32,000 bases of DNA. It comes from Candidatus Thorarchaeota archaeon (GTDB lineage: Archaea; Asgardarchaeota; Thorarchaeia; Thorarchaeales; Thorarchaeaceae). Under the pieces are notes generated by a model. That model was not told the DNA's origin, searched no databases, and was given only the letters and a program-made list of their open reading frames with translations. The first letter of the stretch is position 1. Each line of letters begins with the position of its first letter. Shown here piece by piece: positions 7,266 through 29,641 of the stretch. The stretch is taken from assembly GCA_003345555.1 (NCBI GenBank), contig PRDJ01000057.1, forward strand, positions 60,001 to 92,000. The letters are read 5' to 3'. The translations under genes and the position numbers were made by a program.

Positions 7266-7384
7266 GCCCAGGTAGCCAAGCGGTCACGGCGGTAGCCTGG
7301 AGTCGTCCCTCTACGTAATATATGGGAAACCGAAAGCTACTCTCCTTCTAGGAGACACGAGTTCGAATCTCGCCCTGGGCGCCA
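7266..7384 (+). tRNA. tRNA-Ser(GGA) with a ~32-nt intron at position 37/38 (7303-7334) and encoded CCA
   Basis: Acceptor stem GCCCAGG/CCTGGGC, discriminator G, then CCA. D arm GCC..GGC. Anticodon stem GTAGC/GCTAC with CT-GGA. Long variable arm TCTCC-TTCTA-GGAGA. T loop GTTCGAATC. Lies upstream of rps13, the usual archaeal context. Confidence 0.93.
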
Positions 7385-11384: not shown

Positions 11385-11740
11385 TGGCCTTGGTTCGAAG
11401 AGTAGCCCCAATTCTGTTTCGTCCATCGCTGTTGCCAAAGATGAACCTCGCGACATCAGACTAAGCCTCCTACCCTACGCCTCGGGTCGACACGTCATGG
11501 GCGTATTCTTGGAGTTGCTATCCAGTGTTGGGCCGTTTCAACTGTTCCAGTCAGATCCTCAGCGCATTGAACGTCTGCGCATCATAGTCTTATCCTGGCC
11601 GGATGTGCCGTTTCTGTTCCCAGAGCGAGACTCTCGCCTCCCTGTTCACACAGGACCGGCATCGACACATAGTTGGGAGCTTCCTCAGTTCCAGCTCCAG
11701 GGGAGCTGGTTCCGTTAGTCGCTCTTTCGCTCCAAGGCCA
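11385..11740 (-). ncRNA. rnpB: RNase P RNA (archaeal, ~356 nt, type-A-like with P8)
   Basis: Minus strand. Terminal P1 UGGCCUUGG/CCAAGGCCA. CR-I GAGGAAGCUCCCAA pairs with CR-V AACAGAAUUGGGGCU to form P4 with the bulged U. CR-II ACAGAAA and CR-III UGAAAC present. P3 CCAGCUCC/GGAGCUGG, P8 CCUGU/ACAGG, P9 GCGAG/CUCGC. AUGAUG...CUGA K-turn in P12. Confidence 0.93.
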
Positions 11741-18918: not shown

Positions 18919-19461
18919 CTATGCCTTCTTCAGTCGCACTTCTAAAACACCATTCCGTAGTGATGACTTAGCTTCTTCCTTCTTGACTTTGGCTGGTAGT
19001 TCAAGTTCTCTATGATACGGTCTCTCTTGGTTACTAACGTCAATGGTCAGAATCTTGCCCTTCACATTGACCTTGATTTCGTCCTTCTCAACTCCGGGCA
19101 ATTCTGCAACGACCACTATTTCATCCGTCTCCTCGATCACATCGACAATCGGTTCGAGCTGAGGAGCAACAGGTTCACCGGGGTTCTCCGGGATTCTATG
19201 ACCGAATCTCTGGATGACCGGCTTTCCATCGGGACCTATGGTCATTGAGAATCCAAAGATAAGAGGGTTCAAGTCGTGTGGATTCTTCATCAGCTCATCA
19301 ATGAATCGTTGGTCAAACATCGACCCATTGCCCATTTGGCCGAGCATCTTCTGCATCATGTCTTCGATATTTCGAAGTACATCTTCTGGTAGGAAGTCTC
19401 CCAGCCACTTGCGCAGTGCCTTGCGTGCATCCTCATCATCTGGATTATCGTCCCAAGACAT
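18919..19461 (-). CDS. hsp20: Small heat-shock protein Hsp20 (alpha-crystallin domain)
   Basis: GFSMTIGPDGKPVIQRFG, EPIVDVIE, VVAELPGVEKDEI, LPAKV, NGVLEVRL. GAGGTGA SD. Confidence 0.95.
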   Translation of the reverse strand: MSWDDNPDDEDARKALRKWLGDFLPEDVLRNIEDMMQKMLGQMGNGSMFDQRFIDELMKNPHDLNPLIFGFSMTIGPDGKPVIQRFGHRIPENPGEPVAPQLEPIVDVIEETDEIVVVAELPGVEKDEIKVNVKGKILTIDVSNQERPYHRELELPAKVKKEEAKSSLRNGVLEVRLKKA

Positions 19462-26342: not shown

Positions 26343-26624
26343 CTAGTGCCTCCTCAGAGACTTCTTGAGTCTATCTTCCGGGCGTCCGGTCAGCAATCGC
26401 CCATCAACATGCACGAACTCACCATTCGGTAGTCTGAAACTGAAGACACAAGCTCTCTTTGGAACGGTAATCTCTCGATTGGCCGTGGCCAGTCGGAGAG
26501 TCTCCTTGGACTCATCGATTATCGTACCATCTCTGCATACCAAACTCGGATCACGCGCTTCGACAACGTGAGCGCTCATTCCGATAAGCTCGTGCCTGAC
26601 CAAGTTCGAGAGAGTGGCTTTCAT
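26343..26624 (-). CDS. rnp1: RNase P protein component 1 (Rpp29/POP4)
   Basis: HELIG, GTIIDESKETL, VPK..CVFSF, L.GRPEDRLKK, in the canonical position between rpl29 and rps17. Confidence 0.93.
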   Translation of the reverse strand: MKATLSNLVRHELIGMSAHVVEARDPSLVCRDGTIIDESKETLRLATANREITVPKRACVFSFRLPNGEFVHVDGRLLTGRPEDRLKKSLRRH

Positions 26625-26836: not shown

Positions 26837-27748
26837 CTACATCTCCTCGTCGGTCTCGTCAAGTTCATCTGATGGCCCAGCTTCCTTACTGCCTTCTTCA
26901 CCTTGGGCCGTTCGGCTCTCAGGAGCGGATGGGCTCTCTCGTTCAGTCTTCTGTCGGGCTTTCTTCGGTCCAGTCTCCTCGACTAGGTCAAGTGCATCGA
27001 GTTCCTCGAGTTCACGAAGTTCCTCAATGTCTGTGATTCCCTCAAGGCTCTCTCCGACTTCCTCTGCTGCAGCTTCCGCTGTTACCGCCTCAGGCACTTC
27101 CTCGACGCCCTCGGCCTCCCTGGAAACCTCGACTACACCGGCTTTCTTTGGCTTTGCCTTCTTGACATGAATGACTCCCGGAATCTTTGCATCCGGTCGC
27201 ATTATCTTCACTTGGACTCCGATTGTGCCTGGCTTGAGCACTGCGAAGTCACATGCCTTATCGACGAAGAGATCTGCAGGCTGTCCGGTCTTTGCGATGG
27301 TGGCTTCTCTGAACTTCTGGTACCTTGCTCGTCTACTTCCCAGCTTTCCTTTCACGATTATCTCACACCCGTACGCTCCCGCGCGCATCACGCGTCTTAA
27401 TATCCAGTAAGCCATTCTGCGGTAACGTACACCATGTTCAAGCTGTCTGGCGAGCTTCGAAGCCATAACAGGGGCACTAAGCCAAGGATTCTCTATCTCA
27501 ACTACTTCTACCTGAACGTTCTGGATTCCGTATTCGTTCTCGAGCGCATAGGTGAGGTCCCTGATTTTTGCACCACGGCGCCCTATGACAACGCCAGGTC
27601 TGGAGGCCTGAATGACAACCTCGGTTCTCATGGGCATCTTTCTGATTTCGACGCCGCCATAACCTGCTGCGTTGAGTTCCTTGGATAAGAACTCATCAAC
27701 TCGCAGCTTGCGCATGTTCTGTTCGATGAAGTACTTCACTGCGGACAC
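26837..27748 (-). CDS. rps3: 30S ribosomal protein uS3 with a long acidic C-terminal extension
   Basis: AGYGGVEI, RPGVVIGRRG KH domain, GCEIIVKGKL, KPGTIGVQVKIM. Confidence 0.97.
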   Translation of the reverse strand: MSAVKYFIEQNMRKLRVDEFLSKELNAAGYGGVEIRKMPMRTEVVIQASRPGVVIGRRGAKIRDLTYALENEYGIQNVQVEVVEIENPWLSAPVMASKLARQLEHGVRYRRMAYWILRRVMRAGAYGCEIIVKGKLGSRRARYQKFREATIAKTGQPADLFVDKACDFAVLKPGTIGVQVKIMRPDAKIPGVIHVKKAKPKKAGVVEVSREAEGVEEVPEAVTAEAAAEEVGESLEGITDIEELRELEELDALDLVEETGPKKARQKTERESPSAPESRTAQGEEGSKEAGPSDELDETDEEM

Positions 27749-28213
27749 TTAACCCACCTCCTCCAGAACGATCTCTATGTGAGATGTATCCTCATTATAG
27801 GCTGTGCTTCTTCCAAACGCCCTTGGAATGAATTTCTTGTAGGTCCTTCCTCTCTGCGTCGCTGCATGAACAATCTTGAGCCTGTCGATATCAAGACCCT
27901 TATTGTCGGCATTGCTCTCTGCGTTCTTCAGTACTTTGAGAATCTGCTGCGATGCGTTAACTGGATGTCCTCCGGAAGGCCATTTCTTCATTCCTGCATG
28001 ATGTGGTCTCTGCTTCCGATGACGCTTGTAAGGAAGCCACGTCTTTTCTTCGATTACGCTCTCGAGCAGCTTGGTTGCCTTGTCGAGCATCATGCCCCGG
28101 ATAGCATTGCATATCTCCCTAGAGTGCTTGGGAGAGCACCGCATATTCCTGCCACTGGCTATCGCTGTCTTGTCGGGGTCTATCCCGAGTACGGAATATC
28201 CGTATGTTGGAAT
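27749..28213 (-). CDS. rpl22: 50S ribosomal protein uL22, apparently initiating at ATT (154 aa)
   Basis: The track ORF (28144) lacks the family N-terminus. In frame upstream: ATT CCA ACA TAC GGA TAT TCC... = (M)PTYGYSVLGIDPDKTAIASGRNMRCSPKHS. An in-frame TGA lies 9 nt further upstream, and a GTGAGG SD precedes the ATT. Confidence 0.9.
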   Translation of the reverse strand: MPTYGYSVLGIDPDKTAIASGRNMRCSPKHSREICNAIRGMMLDKATKLLESVIEEKTWLPYKRHRKQRPHHAGMKKWPSGGHPVNASQQILKVLKNAESNADNKGLDIDRLKIVHAATQRGRTYKKFIPRAFGRSTAYNEDTSHIEIVLEEVG

Positions 28214-28410
28214 CTTGCCTCACTTCCGGTGTGATTGTTATCCTGTGGGCACATTGACATCCGTCATGTGCTGTATCCGCTCGTCTTGGTGGTTTCAACG
28301 GCCACTCCAAGACCTCACTGGCACACGTCTACAGACCGTTCGCGCGAGCAGAACGAGAGGCCTGCACTGGCTCCAAGGTCTCGAAACAGTCGTTATCCCG
28401 AGAGCGACTT
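28214..28410 (-). promoter_or_regulatory. Long structured 5' leader of the ribosomal superoperon (candidate r-leader with K-turn)
   Basis: About 197 nt between the predicted TSS and the ATT. Contains a 13-bp stem (28302-28314/28377-28389), a K-turn-like CC-UUG-GA / GA-GG motif, nested helices, and a second hairpin at 28249-28271. Confidence 0.55.
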
Positions 28411-28429
28411 GTCGCTTCCGGTCGAGTTT

Positions 28430-28442
28430 ATCTTTTAAAGAT
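28430..28442 (-). promoter_or_regulatory. TATA box of the rpl22 superoperon
   Basis: ATCTTTAAAAGAT on the minus strand in an AT-rich island of the intergenic region. Confidence 0.65.
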
Positions 28443-28526
28443 TACCAATTATCACACTTGCCCTATGTCTTTGGTATGTTCCTACGGGCAGGCAGGCCAA
28501 ACGAACAACAGTGAGTGCACAAACCT

Positions 28527-28916
28527 TCATGGATTGTCGCCGAATTCGTGTGTGACACGCCTTAGGGCAGCCGCCGTTACCGAGTCGTCAATCAAATCAA
28601 CACCCGACTGGGTCAAGGTCGCTCTCACAAAGTGAGTCCCAGTGGATAGCACATCGACAAGGCCTCGTTCCTTCAGTTTCAGGAGACTGGCCAGAATGAT
28701 CTGTGTCAATTCGTCGTCTGTCATTTCGAACCCCTTGCCCGGAGTCTGAAGTGTCTCGCACATCCTCAGGACAGCTTTTGTGCTGCTCAGAAAACGCCGA
28801 TTGCTGTCATAGGGATTTGTGTGCAACCAGAGAAGCACAATGAGATCGATAACGCTGACATTCATGTGCGGATGTCTCTCAAGTGTTCTCTTCGCAACAA
28901 GCTCGACAATCGGCAT
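28527..28916 (-). CDS. Hypothetical winged-helix-like protein
   Basis: C-terminal SLLKLKERGLVDV...RATLTQSGVDLI resembles a wHTH recognition helix and wing. ATG 28916 overlaps the upstream TGA. Confidence 0.6.
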   Translation of the reverse strand: MPIVELVAKRTLERHPHMNVSVIDLIVLLWLHTNPYDSNRRFLSSTKAVLRMCETLQTPGKGFEMTDDELTQIILASLLKLKERGLVDVLSTGTHFVRATLTQSGVDLIDDSVTAAALRRVTHEFGDNP

Positions 28917-29641
28917 CACTGCTCACCACTGCCAACCAAGGCTACTACTCCCGGCTTGGGCTCAAAGATCAATCCGGAGTGCATCAATCTGTCCAGCGAA
29001 TCCTCGACAGATGATTCCCGCACTCCCTGCGACGTAAATGTCTTCACAAGGTCCTCAACCTTACAGCTGCCGCCCGCTTTTCTCACAGCTGCTACAATAT
29101 CCCTTCTGATGTCGGTCTTGCCTTTCACTTTCTCTGCCGTAGGTCCAGCAGATGGCACCATCTGGATAGTCCACGGACGTGGGAAAACAAGCAGACCATT
29201 CTCAGCTAGCCTCGATAGCTGCTCTTCAACCCAAGGCCAGTCTAGCCTATGCTGTCCACAGAGTTCGGCTATCCTGTCGAGCGAGCAGGGCTTATCCTTT
29301 GCTTCTCTCTCAAGAAGCTCCAACAATCTTTTCCTCTTTCCGGGTGGAGGCACTTCCTCTGTCTGAGAGGAAACCTCCTCGACTGTCAATGTCTCATTGG
29401 GCATGAGTGCCCGGAGCCTCTCCTTTGATTTTTCGACCGCTAGCTGGAATTCATTGTCACGCTTCGCATTGAATTCTCTCACTGCAGCTGAGGCAGCGTC
29501 AGGGCTATCGAAGACAGCGCAGGATGCTTCTGTAATGTCAATAATCCTGCCGCAGTAGCTGCACCGTCGGTGTTTCTGACCGGCCGGGGCATTTGTGAAA
29601 TTCCTGCATTGTGGACAAGCGAAGACGAGGTATGATGTCAA
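28916..29641 (-). CDS. DUF1922-like Zn-ribbon protein with two C-terminal winged-helix domains
   Basis: YLVFACPQC..(QKHRR)CSYCG N-terminus. Two wH-like repeats end in EEQLSRLAENGLLVFPRPW and EDSLDRLMHSGLIFEPKPG. TTG start; TATA-like TTAAATAG near 29681-29688. Confidence 0.7.
   Translation of the reverse strand: MTSYLVFACPQCRNFTNAPAGQKHRRCSYCGRIIDITEASCAVFDSPDAASAAVREFNAKRDNEFQLAVEKSKERLRALMPNETLTVEEVSSQTEEVPPPGKRKRLLELLEREAKDKPCSLDRIAELCGQHRLDWPWVEEQLSRLAENGLLVFPRPWTIQMVPSAGPTAEKVKGKTDIRRDIVAAVRKAGGSCKVEDLVKTFTSQGVRESSVEDSLDRLMHSGLIFEPKPGVVALVGSGEQ

Follow-up and report, generated by a model that had tools for sequence, protein, structure and literature searches.

The 32,000-nt stretch of Candidatus Thorarchaeota DNA analysed here, which we call the window and whose positions are used throughout, carries on its minus strand a ribosomal protein superoperon in the order rpl22-rps3-rpl29-rpp29-rps17, followed by other spc-type genes, Hsp20, rpl15, secY and adk. 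From rpl22 to adk the operon runs from 28213 to 16060, about 12 kb and about 22 genes, and its first gene is rpl22 (uL22; 27749-28213, -), a protein found in 41/41 related genomes searched. The uS3 protein encoded next (26837-27748, -; 303 aa) has a long acidic low-complexity C-terminal tail past its KH and S3_C domains, and an Hsp20/alpha-crystallin gene (18919-19461, -; Pfam PF00011, E 2.5e-10) interrupts the run of ribosomal protein genes between rpl30 and rpl15. An archaeal RNase P RNA (11391-11734, -) lies in the same window as the gene for the RNase P subunit Rpp29 (26343-26624), and a 116-nt tRNA match on the plus strand (7266-7381) is long enough to contain an intron.

Upstream of rpl22 lie two overlapping genes (28527-28919 and 28916-29641, -). 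The nearer one, P0002 (28919-28527), ends 313 nt before rpl22 and encodes a 130-aa protein without a Pfam family, found in Thorarchaeia and in four other Asgard families; the farther one encodes 241 aa with a zinc-ribbon-like N-terminus and a weak winged-helix match. A P0002 homologue, a spacer of 240–320 nt and rpl22 recur together in 24 other members of the family and in one member of the sister family, and the spacer holds the leader RNA described below. P0002 was rejected as a partner linked to this leader: besides having no Pfam family, it occurs in the four other Asgard families, from which the leader is missing, and the two are not neighbours in three Thorarchaeaceae genomes.

In the aligned spacers a TTTAAAWG box is conserved; about 22 bases without conservation separate it from a highly conserved block of about 120–130 nt, after which sequence conservation is absent until the Shine-Dalgarno (SD) region. 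The box is the TTTAAA-type TATA box of the rpl22 operon promoter (TTTAAAAG, 28432-28439, -), kept in 81/81 relatives. Sequence conservation starts exactly at G 28408, after the 22 unconserved nt that separate this base from the TATA box, and the distance from the first T of the TATA box to leader nucleotide 1 is 30–31 nt in 70/81 genomes (range 27–33). Considering that 30–31 nt is the canonical archaeal TATA spacing, transcription is predicted to start at G 28408, close to position 28410 where the original prediction had placed the start site, and the helix P0 would then close the very 5' end of the transcript.

Between the leader domain and the rpl22 start, a run of at least five T was seen in 0/81 genomes and a TATA-like box in only 2/81. 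The locus is covered in two wetland metatranscriptome libraries, by contigs at 28048-28364 and 27919-28217, and the first of these connects the rpl22 coding sequence with the leader, both contigs being short and of low depth, with DNA carry-over possible. The contig ends at 28364 and 28217 were rejected as information on the start site because the contigs are short and of low depth. The TATA spacing, the absence of a T5 run and the bridging contig together place the leader, counted from the predicted start site, in the 5' UTR of the ribosomal protein operon and co-transcribed with it.

The leader domain (28277-28408, -), about 130 nt from the predicted start site to the 3' strand of P0, is modelled as a closed rod of four stacked helices, P0-P1-P2-P3. 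P0 is the 5'-terminal closing helix; its 5' strand UCGCUC (28402-28407, -) pairs in relatives with a segment just past P1. By RNAduplex, the 3' strand in this genome (L001) is GAGCGG (28277-28282, -), and here and in the nearest relative (L002) an extra stretch of about 16 nt, peculiar to these two species, moves it out of its usual place; in most relatives the 3' strand (GAGGGUG or GAGCG) comes 2 nt past P1. P1 is a 16-bp helix of CGACUGUUUCGAGACC (28377-28392, -) with GGUCUUGGAGUGGCCG (28299-28314, -), including conserved U.G/G.U/U.G wobbles, and it contains the 13-bp stem named in the original prediction, CUGUUUCGAGACC (28389-28377) with GGUCUUGGAGUGG (28314-28302). An irregular, purine-rich internal loop, J1/2 (5' strand UUGGAGCCAG, 28367-28376; 3' strand GACGUGUGCCAGUGA, 28315-28329; both -), leads to the 7-bp helix P2, formed by UGCAGGC (28360-28366, -) and GUCUGUA (28330-28336, -); the pairing first given for it, GCAGGCC / GGUCUGU at 28366-28360 / 28336-28330, is present. 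A 5-nt bulge separates P2 from the P3 hairpin (28338-28354, -), in which GUUC (28354-28351) pairs with GAAC (28341-28338) below the apical loop GCUCGCG (28349-28343). All of the helices named at the outset were found in their places on the minus strand, and we agree that no credible ORF occupies the region.

Taken alone, the sequence of the leader is not predicted to fold more stably than chance (MFE -67.8 kcal/mol vs -66.8 kcal/mol for shuffled sequences, z = -0.23), so that the case for a structure rests on comparison with relatives. We gathered 81 leader copies, 76 of them distinct, and counted base pairs in two alignments, one made by MAFFT and not fitted to any structure and one fitted to the model. 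With 25 sequences, RNAalifold and explicit pair counts gave three nested helices, with 92.9% of cells paired vs 35–45% when the partners were slid, and with 16 pairs that change on both sides. The MAFFT alignment of the 76 distinct relatives gave 89.2% paired cells vs 38–44% with slid partners and double-sided changes in 25/36 pairs, and 0/500 shuffles matched any of these measures. Over all alignments, 89–92% of cells are paired vs 30–49% with slid partners, which is covariation of the kind looked for in a ribosomal protein leader (r-leader) and bears out the original prediction of a structured leader of about 200 nt upstream of rpl22. By helix, P1 (16 bp) is paired in 92.5–93.2% of cells with compensatory change in 12 pairs, P2 (7 bp) in 99.4% with compensatory change in 3 pairs (GC/AU/GU exchanges), and P3 (5 bp) in 88% with compensatory change in 2 pairs.

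P0 joins the first ~10 nt of the conserved block to the segment immediately 3' of P1. Its duplex energy averages -9.7 kcal/mol vs -7.0 kcal/mol with shuffled 5' tails, and is better in 73/77 cases; on the alignment not fitted to structure, 73.5% of cells are paired and 8/8 pairs change on both sides. Compensating variants include GUCGCUCUC/GAGGGUG, GCUGCUC/GAGAGCGG, GCAACCCUC/GGAGGGUG, GUCCUC/GAGGA and GUUGC/GCAAC. Covariation thus appears to support P1, P2 and P3 and, more weakly, P0. A further pairing, of 5' GUCG with the CGAC of P1, is paired in 85% of cases with double changes, and competes with P1 and P0. The G-U-rich run of P1, from which strand specificity had been argued, is kept in relatives as U.G/G.U, which means that the fold works on the minus strand only. 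At the same time, the flanks (upstream of the TATA box, the spacer from the TATA box to +1, and the linker) are unconserved, and the domain has a mean column identity of 72–75%.

Most conserved within the domain are its unpaired parts: in J1/2, the GGA and CAGU of the 5' strand, nearly invariant or invariant, and the block ACG.GUGCC of the 3' strand; the CUA of the bulge that precedes P3; and the loop GCUCGCG, whose positions are 80–100% conserved. A86, C87, G88, U91, G92, C93 and C94 are invariant in all 76 distinct copies. Irregular helices are typical protein-binding sites, and the free covariation of P1 pairs next to fixed loops points to sequence-specific recognition. The 3x3 loop next to P1 changes as a whole: about 30 copies have GAU/GUA and about 17 have GAA/GAA or GAA/GAG, with both states found inside one genus. 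This switching accounts for the strongest non-Watson-Crick covariation in the domain, at columns 35/97 (U.U in 39 copies, A.A in 22). The GAU/GUA or GAA/GAA loop appears to resemble loop-E-type tandem non-canonical pairs or isosteric 3x3 motifs.

The covariance model of the leader, R1, finds a single copy in the genome of the window (28291-28408, 107 bits, E 1.4e-25). One copy per genome was found in 81/86 Thorarchaeaceae genomes, including 23/23 of high quality, always before rpl22 and 60–80 nt from its start. R1 found none in the 124 genomes from 26 other families of the phylum (Asgard) and none in the lone genome of the sister family. An exact-pattern scan for the most conserved bases, over 185,579 prokaryotic species with a single genome taken from each, returned 63 loci, all in Thorarchaeota-type MAGs (labelled Thorarchaeota, Promethearchaeota or uncultured archaeon); one of these MAGs is mislabelled Hermodarchaeota and belongs to the same GTDB family. 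In a search of Rfam 15 the region 28100-28600 stayed empty even with the limit relaxed to E <= 10, and the whole window gave only the RNase P RNA and one tRNA, so that, in agreement with the original prediction, no described family in Rfam 15 matches the leader. We consider it well supported by these comparisons that the rpl22 mRNA carries a conserved, covarying, structured leader RNA representing a new family specific to Thorarchaeaceae.

In the sister family, represented by one genome, rpl22 is likewise preceded by a leader in the form of a long hairpin (L026:2047-2136, -). Its P0/P1 layout matches and its tip also reads CUA...GCUCGCG, with a different middle, and R1 scores it at an insignificant 5.3 bits; we also considered it as a tRNA-like element, and no tRNA was found in it. 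The shared tip hints that the P3 apical loop may be the oldest recognition element of the leader.

In the class to which the window belongs, rps19 lies apart from rpl22, on another contig or tens of kb away. In this genome it is on contig C46 (1965-2219), and in the relative G013 the two genes are 43 kb apart. They are adjacent, 80–170 nt apart, in several other Asgard families. By gene order, the S10-type cluster is split between rps19 and rpl22 in this class, so that the operon boundary at which the leader stands is a derived one.

The linker between the domain and rpl22 holds a hairpin, P4 (28249-28271, -), already noticed in the original prediction. A stable hairpin stands at this place in every genome; in 78 relatives it folds with a mean z of -2.4 (z < -1 in 94%) and shows no sequence conservation, so that it is kept as a structure though not as a sequence. 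The SD region, GGAAGUGAGG (28218-28227, -), is kept in nearly all relatives. In almost every genome of the family it keeps one A mismatch to the GGAGGUGA consensus (GGAAGUGA), which suggests selection beyond pairing with the anti-SD. The rpl22 frame opens with TGA-GGC-AAG-ATT, an in-frame TGA standing two codons upstream of the ATT at 28213-28211, which is the only possible start. AUU was found in this genome only, where relatives have ATG or GTG (77 AUG and 3 GUG), and the nearest relative, with a 95% identical uL22, starts with AUG. Two contigs from RNA libraries and one from DNA show the same ATT, which is therefore real and not an assembly error. On this comparison, the AUU is a species-level substitution that stands outside any conserved two-layer module, and the proposal that it forms a second layer of control together with the leader is not supported.

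We propose that the domain is a protein-binding 5' leader of the rpl22-to-secY superoperon, with autogenous control by an encoded ribosomal protein as its most likely role, a reading that we regard as somewhat probable on the sequence comparisons. The invariant loops would be where a protein docks, most probably one of the ribosomal proteins encoded by the operon. Among the candidate binders uL22 is the product of the closest gene, and uL24, uL29, eL19 and eL32 bind irregular or kinked rRNA helices. When in excess over rRNA, such a protein may bind the leader and lower expression of the whole operon, perhaps through mRNA stability, through access to the 5' end, or through a structural change that sets the pyrimidine-rich 5' strand free for pairing with the SD. 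With about 70–150 nt between the binding site and the SD, and with the 5' end tied up in P0, direct occlusion of the SD is less likely.

Several observations weigh against this reading. The distance of the site from the SD is unlike that of most translational r-leaders. In addition, resemblance to the regulator's rRNA site is frequent among ribosomal protein leaders, if not obligatory, and our searches of the organism's own 23S and 5S rRNA and of a relative's 16S and 23S rRNA revealed none. Exact motif strings had no match in the own 23S or 5S or in the relative's 16S, R1 with filters off reached at best 7.7 bits on the rRNAs (E 2.6, noise), and a scan for the loop motif gave loose and unconvincing matches only, structural mimicry being able to escape such scans. 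A likeness of the loop strands to the helix IV/V strands of the own 5S rRNA (ACAUGUGCGG, GUGACAGGCC) was dropped as coincidence because the pairing partners do not correspond. The evidence for switching at the SD likewise appears to count against the reading, as partners are inconsistent and complementarity is weak. No unique anti-SD was found, three pyrimidine-rich segments pairing about equally well with the SD region; the thermodynamically predicted SD partners vary between genomes; and the duplex of the 5' strand with the SD is barely better than with shuffled sequences (-7.8 vs -6.5 kcal/mol). For some genera, pairing between the SD and the pyrimidine-rich 5' strand of P0 is possible, which would allow a P0/SD switch.

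The protein could also be L7Ae, which would bind a K-turn located where P1 meets the inner helices and repress the operon, as the original prediction held on the strength of a motif CC-UUG-GA / UGA-GG. The motif is indeed present in this genome, where the J1/2 5' strand can be read as the bulged strand of a K-turn and the copy fits the simple consensus (GACC / UUG / G.A, A.G / G-U, C-G). The same textbook signature of C-stem, 3-nt bulge, tandem G.A/A.G, then G-U and C-G, occurs in three relatives (L002, L006 and L024). Conservation in relatives, on which the claim had been staked beforehand, is on the other hand not seen: a register-free scan found a canonical signature in 9/81 copies, only 4/81 in the register of the window, and L005, of the window's own genus, has G in place of the critical A at 1n. 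The strands that face each other in the family are mostly GAUGGAAG / GGUA or GAAGGAAG / GGAA, and a K-turn there would need a 4–5-nt bulge or G at 2b. In the remaining copies a U or an A faces the conserved A, changes of a kind that Kt-23 variants tolerate. The signature is also low in information, a loose scan giving 107 matches in the own 3,083-nt 23S rRNA. L7Ae does repress archaeal mRNAs through K-turns in their 5' UTRs (Daume 2017, PMC5539422; Huang, Ashraf and Lilley 2019, PMC6298567), and the known leaders of this kind are short stem-loops of marginal stability; the SD lies in or next to the stem-loop and is occluded upon binding (PMC6298567). The motif here lies inside a long stable rod, between the 16-bp P1 and P2/P3, with the SD ~150 nt downstream past another hairpin. 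The small number of copies with the signature and its distance from the SD make the L7Ae reading weak, and we think it quite improbable that such a control layer exists.

Alternatively, the domain might act without a feedback ligand, as a 5'-terminal stabiliser or processivity element whose P0-closed rod blocks 5'-end-dependent decay or loads a polymerase factor for the ~22 genes. In nearly all genomes the transcript's first nucleotides take part in P0, the element is at the extreme 5' end and far from the SD, and the operon (28213-16060) is unusually long. We nevertheless hold this to be unlikely, if worth serious thought, because protection of an end needs a helix and not invariant loop sequences, and because the contrast between covarying P1 and fixed loops speaks for sequence-specific recognition; we know of no comparable archaeal 5' stabiliser or processivity element. 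A trans-acting RNA, independent or derived from the 5' UTR, would be a 130-nt domain released from the transcript and pairing through ACGUGUGCC or GCUCGCG. The domain is compact and closed and has its own promoter, and the invariant J strand ACGUGUGCCG has a perfect 9-nt complement, CGGCACACG, in the own 23S rRNA (L099, ~2381, at the P-loop/H81 border) and also in a second genus. As an antisense guide site this match is probably due to chance, since a 9-mer is expected in about 3% of cases per rRNA and six strands were tried; inspection found no ACA past P1 (consensus UUGAGGG) and no RUGAUGA/CUGA boxes in the consensus, as H/ACA or C/D guides would have. Without a terminator-like T-run past the domain in any of the 81 genomes and with a second rpl22 promoter in hardly any, and given an RNA-library contig that links domain and coding sequence and a fixed position 60–80 nt before rpl22, we find release as an sRNA very unlikely. 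Small-molecule binding by the invariant loops, perhaps helped by a loop-to-J pseudoknot and reporting the growth state, is very unlikely indeed. Many unpaired nucleotides are invariant, and CGUGUGC of the J strand could pair with the P3 loop GCUCGCG at 6/7 positions, with 84% of cells paired, but this pseudoknot shows 0 compensatory changes and variants mostly break its pairs. The rod is moreover linear, with no multi-helix junction, and no expression platform with consistent sequestration of the SD was predicted. More broadly, the leader may be a new kind of archaeal control RNA that does not act by ribosomal protein feedback, namely an element that engages polymerase or ribosome at the 5' end, or one that senses a small molecule or, by way of the 23S complement, free rRNA. 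We would call this distinctly doubtful from what the sequences suggest; if true, such an RNA would set the processivity or stability of a 12-kb transcript of ~22 genes, or couple ribosomal protein output to the growth state.

Any binder of the leader could set ribosome production, since the leader heads a unit of ~20 ribosomal protein genes together with secY and adk. Very few archaeal cis-regulatory RNAs are known, and Asgard archaea are the closest prokaryotic relatives of eukaryotes. The leader would also offer a dated case in which a new control element arose together with a new operon boundary, here the cut between rps19 and rpl22, and as a short RNA well defined by 76 distinct sequences it is directly testable in vitro.

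With respect to known systems, the rpl22 leader shares with the L7Ae autoregulatory leaders (PMC5539422; PMC6298567) its place in an archaeal 5' UTR and, in this genome's copy, the fit to the simple K-turn consensus. It differs from them in that the K-turn is missing from ~90% of homologues, the helix is long and stable, the stem does not include the SD and the gene controlled is not l7ae. Likewise, the P1-proximal part of its internal loop appears to be like the tandem sheared G.A pairs of loop E (the GAU/GUA submotif of bacterial 5S loop E), whereas the rest of the loop (GGA..CAGU / ACG.GUGCC) fits no nameable motif and the pairing partners do not match helix IV/V of the organism's own 5S rRNA. 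Closest are the r-leaders, an established kind of element in bacteria and archaea (Eckert and Weinberg 2020, PMC7247131). That study gives four new archaeal r-leader candidates and calls such elements rare, and none of its archaeal leaders (S15, eL15, L4) belongs to rpl22, in line with the original prediction that no r-leader had been described for this archaeal gene. Within Rfam 15 and the literature searched, this is, as far as shown, the first r-leader proposed for rpl22 and for Asgard archaea. Compared with the archaeal S15, eL15 and L4-Archaeoglobi leaders and the bacterial S10/L4 leader (PMC7247131), the rpl22 leader is unlike in having no match in Rfam 15, in standing before rpl22 and in Asgard archaea, in showing no detected rRNA mimicry, and in keeping its conserved domain at the extreme 5' end, 70–150 nt from the SD. 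At the same time, it is like them a covarying 5'-UTR RNA of a ribosomal protein operon, on the same strand and in one lineage, and it heads a unit of genes that bacteria hold in their S10 and spc operons.
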